A stretch of 9,283 nt of DNA from a virus. Taxonomy: Duplodnaviria; Heunggongvirae; Uroviricota; Caudoviricetes. How positions within the stretch are numbered: position 1 is the stretch's first letter; each line of letters begins with the position of its first letter. The stretch spans positions 1 to 9,283 of the IMG/VR virus record IMGVR_UViG_2534681766_000007, one strand, 5' to 3'. The notes beneath the pieces are model-generated. The model was given only the letters and a program-made list of their open reading frames with translations. It had not been told where the DNA came from and made no database searches. The position numbers and the translations under genes were made by a program. Below, one piece after another: positions 2,686 to 9,283 of this stretch.

Positions 2686-2752
2686 CGCAAAGTCTCCGCA
2701 ATTACACGCAAGAAAAAACCGCCATCAGGCGGCTTGGTGTTCTTTCAGTTCT

Positions 2753-2881
2753 TCAATTCGAATATTGGTTACGTCTGCATGTGCTATATGCGCCCACAGC
2801 ATCCAGTGGTCTGATGTTCTCGGCTTCGATAACTCTGTTGAATGGTTCTCCATTCCATTCACCTGTGACTCGGAAGTGCAT
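2753..2881 (-). CDS. hypothetical 42-codon ORF downstream of xis in the leftward operon (uncertain)
   Basis: ATG at 2879-2881 preceded by a strong SD (GGAGATGATAA then ATG on the minus strand); translates MHFRVTGEWNGEPFNRVIEAENIRPLDAVGAYSTCRRNQYSN. The ORF track instead lists an overlapping 82-aa ORF in another frame (2725-2973), so the frame assignment is unresolved. Confidence 0.25.
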   Translation of the reverse strand: MHFRVTGEWNGEPFNRVIEAENIRPLDAVGAYSTCRRNQYSN

Positions 2882-2931
2882 TTATCATCTCCATAAAACA
2901 AAACCCGCCGTAGCGAGTTCAGATAAAAGAA

Positions 2932-2951
2932 ATCCTCGTCAGTGCGAGGAT
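2932..2951 (-). terminator. hairpin (7-bp stem ATCCTCG / CGAGGAT, 6-nt loop) followed on the minus strand by TTCTTTTATCTG; possible intrinsic terminator or RNA structure at the left edge of the substitution cassette
   Basis: Inverted repeat read directly from sequence; T-rich run follows on the minus strand. It lies where similarity to lambda, as I recall it, ends. Confidence 0.3.
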
Positions 2952-3123
2952 GCTGTTCATTGCTGCTATACACTTTTTTGCTCTCAACGTAAGCGGTAGC
3001 CCATTCTGTTGGGTTGGTGCAGTTGCTTTTAGGAAATGCTATTTACCCCTTAAATGTCGGCTGAAAGAGCTAAAATCCATGCAAAAAATTTACGCAATTT
3101 TGTGTATTATTGTGCAGTAAGTA

Positions 3124-3726
3124 ATGAGCTATTTTCTGCGCAAAAAATGGATGGTAAATTTGTCCGGGTCAGGAAAAATTTTATGGGCGCTAAACATGAA
3201 AAAAGATTCGTATCCTTATTTGATTTGCATGACAGTTTCAGGGCTGATCTTTATTTTCCTTTTCTTCTGGTGGCGGGCAGATATCTACAGGGTCACGTTT
3301 CTTAATCAGAGTATATCCCACTATTACATTCTGTTTAGCATGGGAATAGCTTTTCTGTTATCTCTGTTTTGGGTTAAGAAGGGGATAGTAAAACAAAGAG
3401 GCTGGAAGAGTCTGTCAGCATACCTTAAGGTTTATGCAGGGATGTGCATATTTGCTGGATTTTTTCTGATTATACCCCTTACGACACTAACTTATTTTTT
3501 GCCTGGAGAGACATCGTCTTATGTTGCACCGTATCGGTATACTTCCGGTAGTTCAAAAAGTTGTTCTGGAGCTGAGGTGGATGACCCCGATCTACATGAG
3601 AATATTCGCATTTGCTATCCGTATGGCAATTATGAGTACGATAATATTATCTATGTTGAAAAGAAAATTAATATATTAGGTGCGGTAGTGACATATGCAC
3701 AGACCGCGCGTGATGATACTGAATGA
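3124..3726 (+). CDS. hypothetical membrane protein, three predicted TM helices plus ~75-aa Cys-containing C-terminal domain (predicted periplasmic); AT-rich accessory (moron) gene, candidate superinfection-exclusion or defence factor
   Basis: 200-codon ORF on the opposite strand to the surrounding lambda early-left genes. Hydrophobic segments YPYLICMTVSGLIFIFLFFWW, HYYILFSMGIAFLLSLFWV and YLKVYAGMCIFAGFFLIIPLTTLTYFL; the TM2-TM3 loop is K/R-rich (KKGIVKQRGWK), consistent with N-in/C-out topology. Start is ambiguous (ATG 3124 or 3196, both with weak SD). A 60-nt sample (3301-3360) has 20 G+C, versus 26 of 60 in an int sample. No recognisable family. Confidence 0.6.
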   Translation: MSYFLRKKWMVNLSGSGKILWALNMKKDSYPYLICMTVSGLIFIFLFFWWRADIYRVTFLNQSISHYYILFSMGIAFLLSLFWVKKGIVKQRGWKSLSAYLKVYAGMCIFAGFFLIIPLTTLTYFLPGETSSYVAPYRYTSGSSKSCSGAEVDDPDLHENIRICYPYGNYEYDNIIYVEKKINILGAVVTYAQTARDDTE

Positions 3727-3760
3727 TATAGTATATAGCGGGCAAGTTTTAGTTAATTTA

Positions 3761-3784
3761 TCGAGGTAATATAATTTACCTCGA
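3761..3784 (+). terminator. hairpin TCGAGGTAA-TATAAT-TTACCTCGA downstream of the membrane-protein gene; putative terminator
   Basis: Perfect 9-bp inverted repeat with 6-nt loop, 35 bp after the stop at 3724-3726, followed by CTCGTTTGTTCTGG (moderately T-rich). Confidence 0.4.
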
Positions 3785-3936
3785 CTCGTTTGTTCTGGTA
3801 TTAATATTTCGCTTTACGACCGATTTTTATCTGATGATATCATGCGGTTTTCATATACTGACTTACTGTCTTTTCTCCGTTAGCGATTTTCTCCTGCTCA
3901 GCGATGATTTTATCTTTGGCTTCTAGTTAATTTCGC

Positions 3937-4158
3937 TCACTTCGAACCTCTCTGTTTACTGATAAGCTCCAGATCTTGCTGGCAACTGGCACAAGTCCGA
4001 CAACCCTGAACGGCCAGTCGTCTTCGTTCATCTATCGGATCGCCACACTCACAACAATGAGTGGCAGATATAGCCTGGTGGTTCAGGCGGCGCATTTTTA
4101 TTGCTGTGTTGCGCTGTAATTCTTCAATTTCTGATGCTGAATCAATTATGTCTGCCAT
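3937..4158 (-). CDS. TraR/DksA-family C4-type zinc-finger protein (lambda Orf73-like), 73 aa
   Basis: ORF MADIIDSASEIEELQRNTAIKMRRLNHQAISATHCCECGDPIDERRRLAVQGCRTCASCQQDLELISKQRGSK contains the CxxC...CxxC motif of the TraR/DksA zinc-finger family; ATG at 4156-4158. Size and position match the lambda TraR homologue as I recall it. Confidence 0.85.
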   Translation of the reverse strand: MADIIDSASEIEELQRNTAIKMRRLNHQAISATHCCECGDPIDERRRLAVQGCRTCASCQQDLELISKQRGSK

Positions 4159-4204
4159 CTTTCATTAATCCCTGAATTGTTGGTTAATACGCTTGAGGGT
4201 GAAT

Positions 4205-4234
4205 GCGAATAATAAAAAAGGAGCCTGTAGCTCC
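4205..4234 (-). terminator. intrinsic-terminator-like hairpin (GGAGC-loop-GCTCC) followed by a T-tract on the minus strand
   Basis: On the minus strand the sequence reads GGAGCTACAGGCTCC then TTTTTTATTATT; located between the stop of the upstream ORF (4257) and the Orf73 start (4158). Confidence 0.45.
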
Positions 4235-4256
4235 CTGATGATTTTGCTTTTCATGT

Positions 4257-4538
4257 TCACCGTTCCTTAAAGACGCCGTTCAACATGCCGATCGCCAGGC
4301 TTAAATGAGTCGGTGTGAATCCCATCAGCGTTACCGTTTCGCGGTGCTTCTTTAGTACGCTACGGCAAATGTCATCGACGTTTTTATCCGGAAACTGCTG
4401 TCTGGCTTTTTTGATTTCAGAATTAGCCTGACGGGCAATGCTGCGAAGGGCGTTTTCTTGCTGAGGTGTCATTGAACAAGCCCCATGTCGGCAAGCATAA
4501 GCACACAGAATATGAAGCCCGCTGCCAGAAAAATGCAT
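4257..4538 (-). CDS. small early-left protein (lambda orf61-region homologue); start uncertain, alternative start at 4472 gives 71 aa beginning MTPQQENALRSIARQ
   Basis: Open frame in the ORF track (93 aa). The ATG at 4538 lies immediately after an in-frame TGA, so the N-terminus may be an ORF-finder artefact; the ATG at 4470-4472 overlaps the stop of a 27-codon ORF in ATGA configuration. Confidence 0.45.
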   Translation of the reverse strand: MHFSGSGLHILCAYACRHGACSMTPQQENALRSIARQANSEIKKARQQFPDKNVDDICRSVLKKHRETVTLMGFTPTHLSLAIGMLNGVFKER

Positions 4539-4548
4539 TCAGTGGTTG

Positions 4549-4740
4549 TCATACCTGGTCTCTCTCATCTGCTTCTGCTTTCGCCACCATCATTTCCAGC
4601 TTTTGTGAAAGGGATGCGGCTAACGTATGAAATTCTTCGTCTGTTTCTACTGGTATTGGCACAAACCTGACTCCAATTTGAGCGAGGCTATGTGCCATCT
4701 CGATACTCGTTCTTAACTCAACGGGAGATGCTTTGTGCAT
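4549..4740 (-). CDS. small early-left protein (lambda Orf63-like), 63 aa
   Basis: ORF MHKASPVELRTSIEMAHSLAQIGVRFVPIPVETDEEFHTLAASLSQKLEMMVAKAEADERDQV; ATG at 4738-4740 preceded by a good SD (GGGGAG, 4-nt spacer); length and position match lambda orf63. Confidence 0.7.
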   Translation of the reverse strand: MHKASPVELRTSIEMAHSLAQIGVRFVPIPVETDEEFHTLAASLSQKLEMMVAKAEADERDQV

Positions 4741-4868
4741 ACAGCTCCCCGTTTATTATTTATCTCCTCAGCCAGCCGCTGGGCTTTCAGCGGATTTCGG
4801 ATAACAGAAAGGCCGGGAAATCCCCAGCCTCGCTTTGTAACGGAGTAGACGAAAGTGATCGCGCCTAA
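4713..4868 (-). pseudogene. 5'-truncated orf60a-like gene; N-terminal coding sequence lost at a deletion joint
   Basis: C-terminal 52 codons (GAITFVYSVTKRGWGFPGLSVIRNPLKAQRLAEEINNKRGAVCTKHLPLS) match lambda Orf60a as I recall it and overlap orf63 by 28 bp as in lambda. Upstream of about 4868 the frame runs into antisense tail-fibre sequence. Confidence 0.5.
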
Positions 4869-6229
4869 TGGATGAAACGAACAAGAAAGCGCCCTTAAAT
4901 AGTCCTGCACTGACCGGAACGCCAACAACGCCAACTGCGCCAAAAGGTACTAATAATACTCAGATCGCAAGTACGGCTTATGTGATGGCCGCGATTGCCG
5001 CCCTTGTAGACTCGTCGCCTGACGCACTGAATACGCTGAACGAGTTAGCGGCGGCGCTGGGCAACGACCCGAATTTTGCGACCACCATGACTAACGCGCT
5101 TGCGGGTAAGCAACCGAAAGATGCCACCCTGACGGCGCTGGCCGGGCTTGCTACTGCGGCAGACAGGTTTCCGTATTTTACGGGGAATGATGTCGCCAGC
5201 CTGGCAACCCTGACAAAAGTCGGGCGGGATATTCTTGCGAAATCGACCGTTGCTGCCGTTATCGAATACCTCGGTTTACAGGAAACGGTAAATCAGGCTT
5301 CTGGCGCATTACAGAAAAACCAGAACGGCGCAGATATTCCGGGAAAAGATACCTTCACCAAAAACATTGGTGCCTGCCGCGCATATAGCGCATGGCTGAA
5401 TATTGGTGGCGATAGTCAGGTCTGGACAACTGCGCAATTTATTTCGTGGCTGGAGAGTCAGGGGGCATTTAACCATCCTTACTGGATGTGCAAAGGCTCA
5501 TGGGCTTATGCAAATAATAAGGTTATTACAGATACAGGTTGCGGAAATATTTGTCTTGCAGGTGCTGTGGTGGAAGTTATTGGCACTCGCGGCGCAATGA
5601 CCATACGCGTTACTACGCCGAGCACGTCCAGCGGTGGCGGAATTACTAACGCTCAATTCACTTATATTAATCATGGTGATGCTTACGCTCCTGGCTGGCG
5701 ACGAGACTACAACACGAAAAACCAGCAGCCTGCATTTGCTTTAGGGCAAACAGGACGCAGGGTCGCAAATGATAAAGCTGTTGGCTGGAACTGGAATAGC
5801 GGTGTTTATGATGCAGATATCAGTGGTGCATCGACATTAATCCTCCACTTCAATATGAATGCGGGGAGTTGCCCTGCTGTACAGTTCCGCGTGAATTACA
5901 GGAACGGCGGTATTTTTTATCGTTCAGCGCGTGATGGTTATGGCTTTGAAGCTAACTGGTCAGAGTTTTACACCACAACACGCAAACCCTCTGCGGGGGA
6001 TGTTGGTGCATATACGCAGGCAGAATGTAACTCAAGGTTTATTACAGGTATTCGCCTTGGCGGTCTGTCATCTGTTCAGACATGGAAAGGCCCCGGCTGG
6101 TCTGACAGGTCAGGTTATGTCGTTACGGGTTCAGTTAACGGAAACCGTGATGAATTAATTGATACAACTCAGGCAAGGCCAATTCAGTATTGCATTAATG
6201 GGACGTGGTATAACGCGGGGAGTATTTAA
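4868..6229 (+). CDS. side tail-fibre protein, C-terminal portion (5'-truncated at deletion joint): constant region to about 5284 plus variable domain Sv
   Basis: 453-aa ORF containing the conserved Stf stretch KAPLNSPALTGTPT...IASTAYVMAAIAALVDSSPDALNTLNELAAALGNDPNFATTMTNALAGKQPKDATLTALAGLATAADRFPYFTGNDVASLATLTKVGRDILAKSTVAAVIEYLGLQETVN, which normally sits in the C-terminal third of lambdoid side tail fibres. No SD before the in-frame ATG at 4868; the N-terminal part of the gene is absent. Confidence 0.85.
   Translation: MDETNKKAPLNSPALTGTPTTPTAPKGTNNTQIASTAYVMAAIAALVDSSPDALNTLNELAAALGNDPNFATTMTNALAGKQPKDATLTALAGLATAADRFPYFTGNDVASLATLTKVGRDILAKSTVAAVIEYLGLQETVNQASGALQKNQNGADIPGKDTFTKNIGACRAYSAWLNIGGDSQVWTTAQFISWLESQGAFNHPYWMCKGSWAYANNKVITDTGCGNICLAGAVVEVIGTRGAMTIRVTTPSTSSGGGITNAQFTYINHGDAYAPGWRRDYNTKNQQPAFALGQTGRRVANDKAVGWNWNSGVYDADISGASTLILHFNMNAGSCPAVQFRVNYRNGGIFYRSARDGYGFEANWSEFYTTTRKPSAGDVGAYTQAECNSRFITGIRLGGLSSVQTWKGPGWSDRSGYVVTGSVNGNRDELIDTTQARPIQYCINGTWYNAGSI
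5259..5284. repeat. 26-bp Gin/Pin/Hin/Cin-type crossover site, left end of invertible segment (TTATCGAATACCTCGGTTTACAGGAA)
   Basis: Close to the Mu gix site as I recall it (TTATCCAAAACCTCGGTTTACAGGAA). Inner 25 bp (5268-5292, ACCTCGGTTTACAGGAAACGGTAAA) is a perfect inverted repeat of 8304-8328. Lies inside the tail-fibre reading frame at the constant/variable boundary (EYLGLQETVN). Confidence 0.85.
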
Positions 6230-6231
6230 CG

Positions 6232-6765
6232 ATGATGCACTTAAAAAACATTACTGCTGGCAACCCTAAAACAAAAGAGCAATACCAGCTAACAAAGCAA
6301 TTTAACATCAAATGGCTTTATTCAGATGATGGAAAAAACTGGTATGAGGAACAAAAGAATTTCCAGCCAGACACTTTGAAAATGGTCTATGACCATAACG
6401 GCGTTATTATTTGTATTGAAAAGGATGTTTCAGCAATTAATCCAGAGGGTGCAAGCGTCGTTGAATTACCTGATATTACAGCAAATCGCCGGGCTGATAT
6501 TTCGGGGAAATGGATGTTCAAAGATGGCGTAGTGATAAAGCGAACTTATACCGAGGAAGAGCAGAGGCAACAAGCGGAAAATGAAAAGCAAAGCCTGTTG
6601 CAACTTGTCAGGGATAAAACCCAGCTATGGGACTCACAGCTACGGCTGGGCATCATTTCCGACGAGAATAAACAAAAATTAACCGAGTGGATGCTCTATG
6701 CGCAGAAAGTCGAATCTACAGACACTTCTGGCCTGCCAGTAACGTTTCCCGAACAACCAGAATGA
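6232..6765 (+). CDS. tfa: tail-fibre assembly protein (Tfa / U-type chaperone), 177 aa
   Basis: Starts 2 bp after the tail-fibre stop (TAACGATG). N-terminus [24 protein letters not shown] and overall length typical of Tfa; paralogous to the oppositely oriented ORF at 6794-7321. Confidence 0.85.
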   Translation: MMHLKNITAGNPKTKEQYQLTKQFNIKWLYSDDGKNWYEEQKNFQPDTLKMVYDHNGVIICIEKDVSAINPEGASVVELPDITANRRADISGKWMFKDGVVIKRTYTEEEQRQQAENEKQSLLQLVRDKTQLWDSQLRLGIISDENKQKLTEWMLYAQKVESTDTSGLPVTFPEQPE

Positions 6766-6769
6766 GAGA

Positions 6770-6793
6770 AGGCCCGCTATCGGGCCTTAATTT
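6770..6793. terminator. bidirectional intrinsic terminator between convergent tfa genes (AGGCCCG-CTAT-CGGGCCT followed by TAATTTTT)
   Basis: GC-rich 7-bp stem with 4-nt loop and a T-run on the plus strand; sits between the tfa stop (6763-6765) and the tfa' stop (6794-6796). Confidence 0.55.
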
Positions 6794-7321
6794 TTACTCT
6801 GGTTTTTGTGGCCATTCAGGATTTGCCGTATCCACACGGCTGACCAGAACACTGTAGCGTTCCCATGCTTCCAGTCGTGTGCGTTCCTCGTCTGTTGCCA
6901 TATTCAGCCTGACAGCGCGTTCCAGCGGTTGGATGACTGATTCAGCTTCGGAAAGCAATGCGGCCTTTTGTGATTCGGCCTGTTGTTGTTGCTCGTCTGC
7001 CGTATAAATCCGTTTAACCACAGCTCCGTCCCTAAACATCCACTTACCGGAATCATCAGCGCGGCGGTTGGCTGTAATATCTGGAACCTCAACGACGCTA
7101 TAACCTTCAGGGTTAAGCGTGGAGGCATCTTTGGTGATGGCGACAATAATATTATTTGCATCGTAAACAATCTTTATTGTGTCTGGCTGAAAGTTTTTCA
7201 CTTCCTCATACCAGTTTTTTCCGTCTTCGGACCATAACCAGATAACATCAAAATTCTTTGTTAGCTGATATTGTTCTTTTGTTTTTGGTTTTCCAGACTT
7301 AATATTTTTTAAATGCTGCAT
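6794..7321 (-). CDS. tfa: alternate tail-fibre assembly protein (Tfa' / U'), 175 aa
   Basis: N-terminus [24 protein letters not shown] is paralogous to the plus-strand Tfa, with a divergent C-terminal half; start ATG at 7319-7321, 3 bp after the Sv' stop. Confidence 0.85.
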
Positions 7322-7324
7322 AAA

Positions 7325-8323
7325 TTACACCTGTACGACGTTATACCATGTGCCATTGATGTATTTTTGTATTGGTCTGAATACTGCCGGATCATCGCCA
7401 TCAACTGCACCGATAATGCCAAGCCCCGTAATTGCATGACCTGATTTCTCATACATCACGCCTTTTTGCATAGTCTGAACAACACGTGTACCAAGTCGGA
7501 CATCTCTCACATAACGTGGGTCAAAATTACCATAATTGCCGGGAATAACTTGCGCACCGCAAAGCCAGTTGCCATTGTTGTCCATGTACGCCTGACCATC
7601 GGTGCCATTGGCTGTCCTTGAGTTATTAATCATGTAGATGCCAAATTGCTTATTCCCCAGTCCACCAATCATAAATTTGCGATCAGCGTGGTCCTGACGA
7701 AGTAATGCCTGCGCACCATCGGTGGATACCGCATTGCGTCCCAAAATAACATTCTGGTCACGCATATGAATCCACATGCCGGTACTACTGTTAATTGCAA
7801 AACGGTTTGCAAATATATCCCCTGTAACATCAAGACCATGCCCCATGCTTATCCGACCAGTTCTGAGATTAAGCGTAAAGGGGCGTAGTGGCCCTATATC
7901 ACCATTTTCTCCCTCATTCTCTCGTGTAGGGATGATATGCAGGCATTCTTCAGAGCGACGAAAAATAGCACCAAAAGATGAATTAAATATCCTCAGTGCA
8001 TTGACTGTCGATATTTTTACTTCACTGCTGAAAAGGGCTTTAACAAGGACAGACAAAGCATCCCATTTAAGAGTCATCAGGTCTTTTGTTGTGGTGCTCT
8101 GGCGGCTTCTCCATTTGAAATATTCATTGCCGTTGTCGCCTGTTTCAAACCACATGTATGAATCAGTGTCGCTGTCGGCATTATTTTTAAAACCAATCTT
8201 TGCCCAGTCAGTATTTCTAATCCAGGCAAGGATTGAGTCGTTTTCAAAAGTAAGCCCACCGGACAAGGTATCGCCATTCTTTTGCACGGCGTTCCTGGCC
8301 CTGTTTACCGTTTCCTGTAAACC
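7325..8323 (-). CDS. alternate tail-fibre variable C-terminal domain (Sv'); no start of its own, expressed only when inversion joins it to the constant region
   Basis: Reading from the right crossover site on the minus strand gives ...YLGLQETVNRARNAVQKNGDTLSGGLTFENDSILAW..., in frame with the constant-region motif and continuing to a stop at 7325-7327. Ends ...FRPIQKYINGTWYNVVQV, parallel to the Sv ending ...RPIQYCINGTWYNAGSI. Confidence 0.8.
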   Translation of the reverse strand, partial: GLQETVNRARNAVQKNGDTLSGGLTFENDSILAWIRNTDWAKIGFKNNADSDTDSYMWFETGDNGNEYFKWRSRQSTTTKDLMTLKWDALSVLVKALFSSEVKISTVNALRIFNSSFGAIFRRSEECLHIIPTRENEGENGDIGPLRPFTLNLRTGRISMGHGLDVTGDIFANRFAINSSTGMWIHMRDQNVILGRNAVSTDGAQALLRQDHADRKFMIGGLGNKQFGIYMINNSRTANGTDGQAYMDNNGNWLCGAQVIPGNYGNFDPRYVRDVRLGTRVVQTMQKGVMYEKSGHAITGLGIIGAVDGDDPAVFRPIQKYINGTWYNVVQV

Positions 8324-8337
8324 GAGGTTTTAGATAA
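8312..8337. repeat. 26-bp Gin/Pin/Hin/Cin-type crossover site, right end of invertible segment (TTCCTGTAAACCGAGGTTTTAGATAA)
   Basis: One mismatch to the Mu gixL sequence as I recall it (TTCCTGTAAACCGAGGTTTTGGATAA); inverted with respect to the site at 5259-5284. Confidence 0.85.
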
Positions 8338-8391
8338 TGGCGGTTTCTGGCCTGCATGGCATGATTTGTGCTTTTGGACGGGAGATTCAGC

Positions 8392-8625
8392 GTGCTGATT
8401 GGCTATGTAAGGGTATCAACAAATGACCAGAATACAGACCTGCAACGAAACGCTCTTGTTTGTGCAGGATGTGAACAAATATTTGAAGATAAATTAAGCG
8501 GAATAAGGACAGGCCGACCTGGATTAAAACGTGCTTTAAAGCGCCTTCAAAAAGGTGACGCACTGGTTGTCTGGAAACTGGACTGACTGGGTCACTGTAT
8601 GCGGCATCTTGTCGTGCTGGTGGTG
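8392..8625 (+). pseudogene. pin: serine DNA invertase (Pin/Gin/Hin/Cin family) remnant: N-terminal catalytic fragment interrupted by in-frame TGA after codon 64, then 3'-truncated
   Basis: GTG at 8392 with GGAG 7 nt upstream; translation VLIGYVRVSTNDQNTDLQRNALVCAGCEQIFEDKLSGIRTGRPGLKRALKRLQKGDALVVWKLD carries the invertase active-site serine context (VRVSTNDQ). TGA at 8584-8586 where family members have an Arg codon (DRLGRS), a few more invertase-like codons (MRHLVVLV), then unrelated sequence. The helix-turn-helix DNA-binding C-terminus is absent. Confidence 0.85.
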
Positions 8626-8718
8626 GAAGCCTGGAAAAAGTATCGGGGGTTGCTGAACCGTGTTGATACATCAACTGCACCGGATATTGAATGGCCAACA
8701 GGACCCATTATCGAATAG
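8626..8718 (+). pseudogene. 3'-terminal fragment of a tail-fibre assembly (tfa) gene fused in frame to the pin remnant
   Basis: Translation [30 protein letters not shown] then stop (TAG 8716-8718). This matches the Tfa C-terminal pattern seen in both tfa genes of this window (...[26 protein letters not shown] and ...LTEWMLYAQKVESTDTSGLPVTFPEQPE) and the lambda Tfa C-terminus as I recall it. Confidence 0.6.
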
Positions 8719-8729
8719 TGCATTACGAA

Positions 8730-8762
8730 CTGCAGGATATTATATGGGATAATATTCTGCAG
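8730..8762. terminator. 13-bp stem hairpin (CTGCAGGATATTA / TAATATTCTGCAG, one G-U pair) followed by TTTATT; putative bidirectional terminator between the convergent pin/tfa remnant and the GGDEF gene
   Basis: Inverted repeat read directly from sequence at 8730-8742 and 8750-8762 with a 7-nt loop; 30 bp upstream of the GGDEF gene stop (8792-8794) on the opposite strand. Confidence 0.4.
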
Positions 8763-8791
8763 TTTATTGGGGCTGTATTTTAAAAAGGTGT

Positions 8792-9283
8792 TTATTTTGA
8801 GTGAGTTATCACCTTGTTTTTTCCGGTTCTTTTGGCTTGATATAACGCTTTATCGGCATTGACTAACATTTCAGATGGACTGAGATTATTCTCTTTTGAA
8901 GTAAAGCAACCAATACTGACAGTTATTTTCTCAGGTCCATGCGATAATAATTTTTCCGAGCATTGCTCTTCAATGTTTTTTCTGATTCGCTCTGCAATTG
9001 ATAGCAAGAGCTTTTGAGTATTACCTTTAATGATAATACCGAACTCCTCACCGCCTAAGCGCCCTAATATATCCTCTTTCCTGATGGATTTTTTTATTAT
9101 TCTGGTAACCATTACTATGACTTGATCACCCATATGATGCCCCCATTTGTCATTGATGCTTTTGAAATTGTCAATATCTAACATTATTACTGAGAAATCA
9201 TGGTGTTTTGATATATTCTTCAATGAGTCAATAAAGTATCTTCTATTGTATGTATTCGTTAGTGGATCATGAATTGCCATATG
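8792..9283 (-). CDS. GGDEF-domain diguanylate cyclase, C-terminal catalytic domain (5' end of gene lies beyond the window)
   Basis: Frame contains the GGDEF-domain start motif DPLTNTYNRRYF, the active-site motif GGEEF (LGRLGGEEFGIII) and an RxxD I-site (RKED) five residues upstream of it. The frame is open to the window edge, so the listed Met is probably internal. AT-rich: 20 G+C in the 60 nt 8881-8940. Confidence 0.8.
   Translation of the reverse strand, partial: HMAIHDPLTNTYNRRYFIDSLKNISKHHDFSVIMLDIDNFKSINDKWGHHMGDQVIVMVTRIIKKSIRKEDILGRLGGEEFGIIIKGNTQKLLLSIAERIRKNIEEQCSEKLLSHGPEKITVSIGCFTSKENNLSPSEMLVNADKALYQAKRTGKNKVITHSK

Follow-up and report, generated by a model that had tools for sequence, protein, structure and literature searches.

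The stretch of DNA analysed here (the window, 9,283 nucleotides) is the attLambda region of an E. coli chromosome and carries a decayed lambdoid prophage. The gene ybhC (1-1284) and, after it, int and xis of the lambda type (1419-2685) are on the minus strand. Then come early-left genes of lambdoid origin, which occupy 2.2 kb, a tail-fibre gene that is represented by its 3' part and includes an invertible segment, a hybrid of pin and tfa sequences, and the 3' part of a diguanylate cyclase (GGDEF) gene (8792-9283, minus strand; Pfam GGDEF, E 7e-46). Positions 2700-4867 are a single piece, collinear with and 99.1% identical to the early-left region of the lambdoid phage mEp332, and within it a DksA/TraR zinc-finger protein and a DUF1382 protein are encoded. 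Because the mEp332-like piece stops exactly at the start of the tail-fibre block, a single deletion of most of the prophage made the joint at 4867/4868, and this separate, large deletion cuts off the fibre gene on the left. The original prediction counted at least three rearrangement scars in 9 kb; the one at 4867/4868 is real, but there is none at about 3925, which lies within the uninterrupted mEp332-like piece. The sequence TAATG was created at the 4867/4868 joint, and its ATG opens the truncated fibre ORF. At the other end of the window, the GGDEF gene marks the attR-side end of the prophage and is followed in relatives by ybhB and bioA. By its position it is very probably dgcX, a gene placed at attB, always beside lambdoid prophage DNA (Richter et al. 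2014, PMC4287979). The invertase and tail-fibre remnants that adjoin it are unmentioned in that report.

Positions 4866-8582 form one block that shows 94-95% identity to the cassette of the P2-like phage P88 and that contains a constant part, a 3.1-kb invertible segment whose orientation is the reverse of that in the P88 record, and the 5' end of an invertase gene. The constant part of the tail-fibre gene is of the P88/Mu S type (4868-5254, plus strand), 4866-5297 being 95.4% identical to the P88 tail-fibre gene. It leads into the left inverted repeat (5255-5292), a gix/pix-type crossover site of 38 nt that is located within the tail-fibre ORF and is 92% complementary to the right inverted repeat (8304-8341), the crossover site directly upstream of the invertase remnant. 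Between the repeats lies the invertible segment of ~3 kb (5293-8303); measured with its repeats (5255-8341), it is 93.6% identical to P88 over 3105 nt in the opposite orientation. All four coding parts of the cassette are intact, namely the fibre ORF from 4868 through the Sv end of stf to 6229 and tfa at 6232-6765, both on the plus strand, and tfa' at 6794-7321 and Sv' at 7325-8287, both on the minus strand. A functional cognate invertase is absent from beside the segment, the invertase gene that adjoins one of the two inverted crossover sites being truncated and stopped. The prophage has no remaining tail genes, yet the stf ORF from 4868 is open in both orientations, with products of 453 and 467 aa, and this could reflect either recent decay or retained use.

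This layout is that of the Mu G, P1 C and e14 P cassettes (of Gin, Cin and Pin, respectively), in which a constant fibre part precedes a 3-kb segment that is bounded by 38-nt inverted repeats and contains two convergent Sv-U sets, with the start of the invertase gene immediately beyond the right repeat; the sequences here are 92-95% identical to those of P88 and Mu. Unlike in those systems, the invertase here ends after codon 77 and is fused to a foreign gene, and the cassette resides in a lambdoid side-tail-fibre operon and not in a myovirus. Given that the invertase is truncated, inversion of the segment would depend on an invertase from elsewhere.

The pin-tfa hybrid and its breakpoint

Positions 8368-8718 can be translated in a single frame that passes from the invertase part through a TGA and pin-like codons into a Tfa tail. 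The invertase remnant (8392-8586, plus strand) consists of 64 codons and the premature TGA at 8584-8586. A pin-type continuation past the stop (8587-8623, plus strand) provides 12 invertase-like codons (8587-8622), and the remainder (8624-8718, plus strand) is the 3' end of the resident lambda-type tfa, encoding residues 165-194 of 194 (8626-8715) followed by TAG at 8716-8718. The translation thereby bears out the frame that had been claimed from the sequence alone, with its premature TGA, its 12 invertase-like codons and its in-frame switch to a Tfa C-terminus.

The N-terminal 64 aa, called 'recombinase family protein' by PGAP, match positions 2-73 of the 145 positions of Pfam Resolvase (E 3.5e-18), and the translation includes the catalytic-serine motif YVRVSTxxQ, as GYVRVSTNDQ. 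The full Resolvase catalytic domain (PF00239, 145 positions) is absent, with the TGA at codon 65 and foreign sequence from codon 78, and the C-terminal helix-turn-helix (PF02796), present in full-length relatives, is also absent in the window. The tail matches Caudo_TAP at positions 104-130 of 131 (44 bits against a cutoff of 22, E 2.5e-11), with the match beginning at the E of EAWKKY. The full Caudo_TAP domain (PF02413) is likewise absent from the window; the allele of the intact locus L010, described below, covers positions 1-130. The tfa remnant has no start codon of its own, as the sole upstream in-frame ATG (8599) is located in pin-derived sequence and no stf precedes it. The hybrid ORF is a dead remnant, and neither a working gene nor a new kind of gene.

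Aligning the window in register with pinE and the intact L010 tfa places the breakpoint at 8623/8624, between the first base of pin codon 78 and the second base of tfa codon 164. With a slash marking the breakpoint, pinE reads CTG GTG G/AG GAG, the resident tfa reads TCG TTG C/TG GAA GCA, and the window reads CTG GTG G/TG GAA GCC. The joint falls within the patch TGGTGGA (8621-8627, plus strand), for which pinE has TGGAGGA and tfa has TGCTGGA; the two parents agree at five of seven positions, and on this comparison the patch reads as imperfect microhomology. Illegitimate recombination of an invertase gene with a tfa gene had been predicted at this place, with microhomology to be looked for at about 8617-8626, and both the joint and the breakpoint are found where they were indicated. 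The addition of an extra TGG by slippage at the joint was considered and rejected, since the in-register alignment is simply pin up to 8623 and tfa from 8624.

At least two other pin::tfa fusions that are in frame and of independent origin were observed (L014:8001-8330 and L016:1378-1686, proteins P0030 and P0037). P0037 is composed of pinE codons 1 to ~76 and the last 26 residues of e14 TfaE; the 3' end of tfaE is natively placed there against tfaP, and the shared bases are GTGCTGG, at which the assembly has an N. In P0030, whose host element is a myovirus-type prophage, pin passes into the final 13 tfa residues at an octamer common to both genes, TTGATACA (Pin IDT, Tfa VDT). Joints between pin and tfa genes recur.

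The invertase part of the hybrid has a composite ancestry. Positions 8300-8582 show 92.5-95.7% identity to the P88, D108 and Mu invertases, and all such matches end at 8582. To the right, 8600-8623 agrees with e14 pinE at 24 of 24 positions and has about ten differences from gin, the identity to pinE extending over 8599-8623. To the left, 8563-8583 is common to the invertases of the gin type (P88, Mu), and neither of two pinE alleles differs from it by more than one base. Between them, a cluster of four to six substitutions occupies 15 nt (8584-8598) and includes the change of CGA/AGG to TGA. As judged from the sequence, this cluster appears too dense for ordinary decay, the rest of the sequence being 95-100% conserved, and it may be the trace of a gin/pin crossover or of conversion by an unsampled invertase allele. 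The change from gin-like sequence (up to 8582) to pinE-like sequence (8600-8623) means that at least two recombinations are superimposed near the joint. No full-length version of this gin/pinE-mosaic invertase was found, the best full-length matches being ordinary pinE at 89%.

The resident tfa and the origin of the joint

The tail of 30 residues is derived from tfa, as had been predicted, and DNA identity, the Pfam match and contiguity with an intact locus rule out a chance resemblance. At the DNA level, 63 phage records match the tail, with ~89-95% identity among the matches listed, nearly all of which begin at window 8621. A synthetic unbroken query, made of 300 nt of lambda tfa upstream of the junction and window 8624-8920, found full-length matches of 98% identity in 319 complete E. 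coli genomes; these have an annotated tail fibre assembly protein, with a full tfa of 194 aa, and then a diguanylate cyclase. The gene order at L010 is J-lom-stf(1132 aa)-tfa(194 aa)-dgc-ybhB-bioA. Window 8621-9283 is collinear with this intact tfa-dgc locus at 98.6% identity, and the end of the L010 Tfa is the window tail with one substitution. The 319 intact loci and the match to L010 therefore indicate that the remnant is resident tfa sequence, namely the 3' end of the gene, and that it occupies its native position.

The tfa remnant and dgc are convergent, and a stable AT-rich hairpin lies between them (8727-8765; -24.8 kcal/mol, z -5.5). A terminator hairpin had been proposed to follow the stop codon, and a stable hairpin does exist, but it has no GC-rich stem and no T tract, the next bases being TTTATTGGGG, and it is not a canonical intrinsic terminator; the terminator scan called none at 8727-8765. 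Alignment indicates that lambda, too, has a hairpin-forming inverted repeat downstream of tfa, but a different one.

We compared L010 with joint-bearing loci that retain more upstream DNA, two at attLambda (L011 and L012) and one at the ompW/trp site (L005). All three leave collinearity with L010 at its position 6881, corresponding to stf codon ~490 and measured to ~13 nt in L012, and rejoin it at 9298, which equals window 8621; after rejoining, L011 is 98.2% identical for 9.3 kb. A lambda-type stf N-terminus lies upstream of the module in each of the three, and in L005 the chimeric stf is an intact ORF of 968 aa followed by its tfa, indicating that the graft yielded a coherent gene. As both flanks belong to one stf-tfa pair, the module is embedded in a single pair and does not precede a second, distal set. 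In these relatives the left crossover zone of the graft lies only ~5-80 nt to the left of the position that corresponds to the window's 4867/4868 joint.

We consider it probable that a tail-fibre cassette was substituted and that the joint is a fossil of the right-hand boundary of that substitution. The starting point would have been a lambda-like prophage with one ordinary stf-tfa pair and then a cargo gene, in which stf codons ~490-1132 and tfa codons 1-163 gave way to a host-range cassette of the Mu/P2/e14 type. The incoming DNA would have consisted of the constant part, the Sv-U/U'-Sv' segment, which is invertible, the crossover site on the right and invertase codons 1-77. The left crossover would have been homologous, in a stretch common to lambda-type Stf and P2/Mu-type fibres, and the right crossover illegitimate, placing pin codon 78 onto tfa codon 164 at the imperfect 7-nt patch. 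Afterwards, lambdoid prophages at several attachment sites would have acquired the hybrid remnant, the DNA to the left of the joint would have been exchanged for other cassette alleles, and the TGA would have closed the ORF in most copies. The cis sites that were kept, the right crossover site and a putative Fis enhancer, plausibly still work and would let a Pin-family invertase encoded elsewhere flip the segment. Sequenced genomes display both boundaries, the intact ancestor-like state, the common joint and the two orientations. We infer that the graft occurred in a single step, the alternative being a graft with the whole invertase followed by a deletion; no intermediate that would tell the two apart was found.

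The original prediction accounted for the joint differently, with a whole pin module that was followed by a second, distal lambda-like stf-tfa pair and a deletion that ran from pin into the second tfa. The joint does fuse two same-strand genes, as a deletion would, and stacked tfa 3' remnants do occur past tail-fibre operons, the second one in L005 being located at 7047-7223. However, the distal pair has no counterpart at this locus, where the tfa 3' end is that of the resident gene upstream of dgc, full-length in the 319 genomes. Both flanks align collinearly with a locus in which stf and tfa form a single pair, the N-terminus of the lambda-type stf is found upstream and not downstream of the module, and no genome or phage was found in which a full-length invertase of this lineage is followed by tfa. 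Such a deletion is, in our judgement, quite unlikely.

The locus resembles the lambda stf-tfa operon in its last 30 codons and downstream DNA (93% identity to lambda and 98.6% to the resident allele of L010) and, in relatives, in the lambda-type N-terminal half of stf upstream; it differs in that the stf and tfa codons specified above are replaced by a Mu/P2-type cassette. Exchange of tail-fibre segments among lambda, Mu, P1 and P2 was reportedly described by Haggard-Ljungquist et al. in 1992 and by Sandmeier in 1994. As in such exchanges, the left crossover lies in the similarity that these unrelated phages share, and the fibre gene is mosaic. Unlike in the earlier comparisons, both boundaries are mapped here to the base, and the right one is illegitimate and lies within the invertase gene. 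We know of no earlier fibre-exchange comparison with an illegitimate joint inside an invertase gene. The event itself is of a well-known kind, phage tail-fibre mosaicism; in the literature searched, no prior description was found of the joint, the two mapped boundaries, the prevalence or the orphan segment.

Distribution of the joint among E. coli genomes

A probe spanning the junction (window 8540-8700) detected the joint in 538 of 5,426 complete E. coli genomes (~10%), including EC958, and in 95 of the 538 the joint lies beside dgc. A prevalence figure of 509 genomes was discarded as inflated, loci at another site reaching ~80% coverage. No joint-spanning phage record was found among 50,697.

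At the ompW/trp site the place of dgc after the joint is taken by a methyltransferase gene, and the divergence occurs only within the last tfa codons. In L005, the last tfa codons and everything downstream differ from the window, and the invertible segments of the two are different alleles (70-80% identity), whereas the right repeat, the pin remnant and the tfa remnant are 97% identical, indicating that cassettes have been swapped to the left of a conserved joint. The same prophage contains two stacked tfa 3' remnants (L005:6077-7300) with the methyltransferase gene between them and lambda-like DNA after each, which suggests repeated cassette or cargo insertions anchored at the tfa 3' end. Among the dgc-linked loci, large upstream differences are seen, for example in L001 (strain 1409) and L011 (strain 13C1065T), and the upstream variants include DLP12-like Q, lysis and terminase genes, an IS1 insertion and other fibre-gene deletion endpoints; the pin'-'tfa-dgc-ybhB side is constant, at 98-99.8% identity, across these loci.

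The joint DNA is identical in the window, in L005 and L006, and in the open, pinE-type locus L013, indicating that it arose in one event. The copies examined in the window, L005 and L006 also carry the TGA. The joint had been ascribed to the decay of this one element, a view that is not supported, since the identical joint, with a TGA in the copies examined, is present in 538 genomes and at several chromosomal sites. Uninterrupted hybrids with the same junction DNA, in which Arg replaces the stop, are confined to rare contigs (P0001-P0003 and P0008). They are pinE-like throughout, and the L013 copy adjoins potB, a third site. None was found at 80% or greater coverage in the 5,426 complete genomes. 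This uninterrupted pinE-like version is probably nearer to the original product.

The open versions raise the question of whether the hybrid is, or recently was, a functional gene for a small protein with half a resolvase domain and a Tfa C-terminal tail. They share the same joint and have both Pfam domains, and other in-frame pin::tfa fusions exist (P0030 and P0037). However, the open versions are singletons that are lacking, at that coverage, from the complete genomes, the window, L005 and L006 carry the stop, and the truncated product of 64 aa is common in the protein collection (cluster P0076, 56 member sequences; cluster P0097, 136 contigs). The protein would be without Resolvase positions 74-145 and the entire helix-turn-helix and would retain only 27 of 131 Caudo_TAP positions. 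Moreover, a protein search sees only in-frame fusions, so the shared frame carries no weight. The original prediction had named a conserved functional hybrid elsewhere as one finding that would speak against a scar: the hybrid is indeed conserved elsewhere, with rare open versions, but shows no sign of being a functional gene, and we regard a functional origin as highly improbable. An origin by inversion between pin and an opposite-strand tfa, which could appeal to the presence of tfa genes on both strands around invertases and to the pinE::tfaE fusion P0037 in a rearranged e14-like element, is scarcely credible, given that from 8621 the sequence is collinear in the same orientation with tfa-dgc-ybhB-bioA, that L011 (99.7% identical to the window) is collinear for >9 kb, and that the reciprocal tfa5'-pin3' junction is absent.

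An invertible segment beside a truncated invertase

Both orientations of the invertible segment occur beside the joint. A probe for the window orientation matched 97 genomes and a synthetic flipped probe matched 56, counts that represent P88-type alleles beside the joint, not all of them dgc-linked; linkage to dgc was verified for the best ten matches of each orientation, which show 99.5-99.9% identity. Comparison of L012 with the window reveals a clean inversion with its ends within the 38-nt repeats, at 99.5% identity. L012 also has an internal deletion of 984 bp (L012:5539-5541 against window 6059-7042), and the deleted DNA extends from the fibre gene's end into the second tfa.

With a single origin of the joint, the second orientation postdates the loss of the invertase. 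The simplest cause is that the segment was probably flipped in trans by an invertase encoded elsewhere; alternatively, homologous exchange with a sibling whose invertase was intact could have brought in the flipped state. Some pin-like sequence is present in ~78% of genomes, and PinQ, PinR and PinE have all been found to invert the e14 P segment, with PinE also inverting Mu G (PMC12529663). In addition to the crossover sites, a stretch of 110 nt within the invertase remnant (8392-8501) shows zero differences among the window, Mu gin and the P88 invertase, and its flanks vary every few bases. By analogy with Hin, this invariant stretch is a probable Fis-dependent recombinational enhancer kept in cis; the location of the recombinational enhancer has been established for hin (PMC2724282).

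The closest parallel is the P segment of e14, likewise a cryptic-prophage fibre segment seen in both orientations among sequenced genomes, and one that is inverted by the invertases of other prophages (Kirigo et al. 2025, PMC12529663). The e14 element has an intact pinE of its own, whereas the local invertase here is dead, so that inversion could occur only in trans. A bolder reading, which we think unlikely, is that the joint marks widespread orphan host-range switches, in the form of lambdoid prophages, among them decayed ones beside dgcX, that keep the cassette, the crossover sites and the enhancer without an invertase of their own and whose segment is flipped by Pin enzymes of other prophages. 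If this were true, the truncated fibre ORFs (453 and 467 aa), which are still open, might be expressed, with an effect on susceptibility to other phages, by analogy with PinQ and StfE2.

For annotation, the 64-aa 'recombinase family protein' and the adjoining tfa pseudogene are to be read as the halves of one recombination joint and not as two separate genes. For the biology of these phages, the locus shows to the base how a host-range switching cassette passed from a contractile-tailed phage into a lambda-like side-tail-fibre operon, leaving a scar that is a stable marker in ~10% of complete E. coli genomes. It also leaves a segment operable in trans only, which bears on recent evidence for an effect on phage defence of the inversions that Pin enzymes drive in cryptic prophages. 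Finally, the joint and the intact tfa are alternative states beside dgcX, and they could be used to trace the history of this virulence-associated cargo gene.
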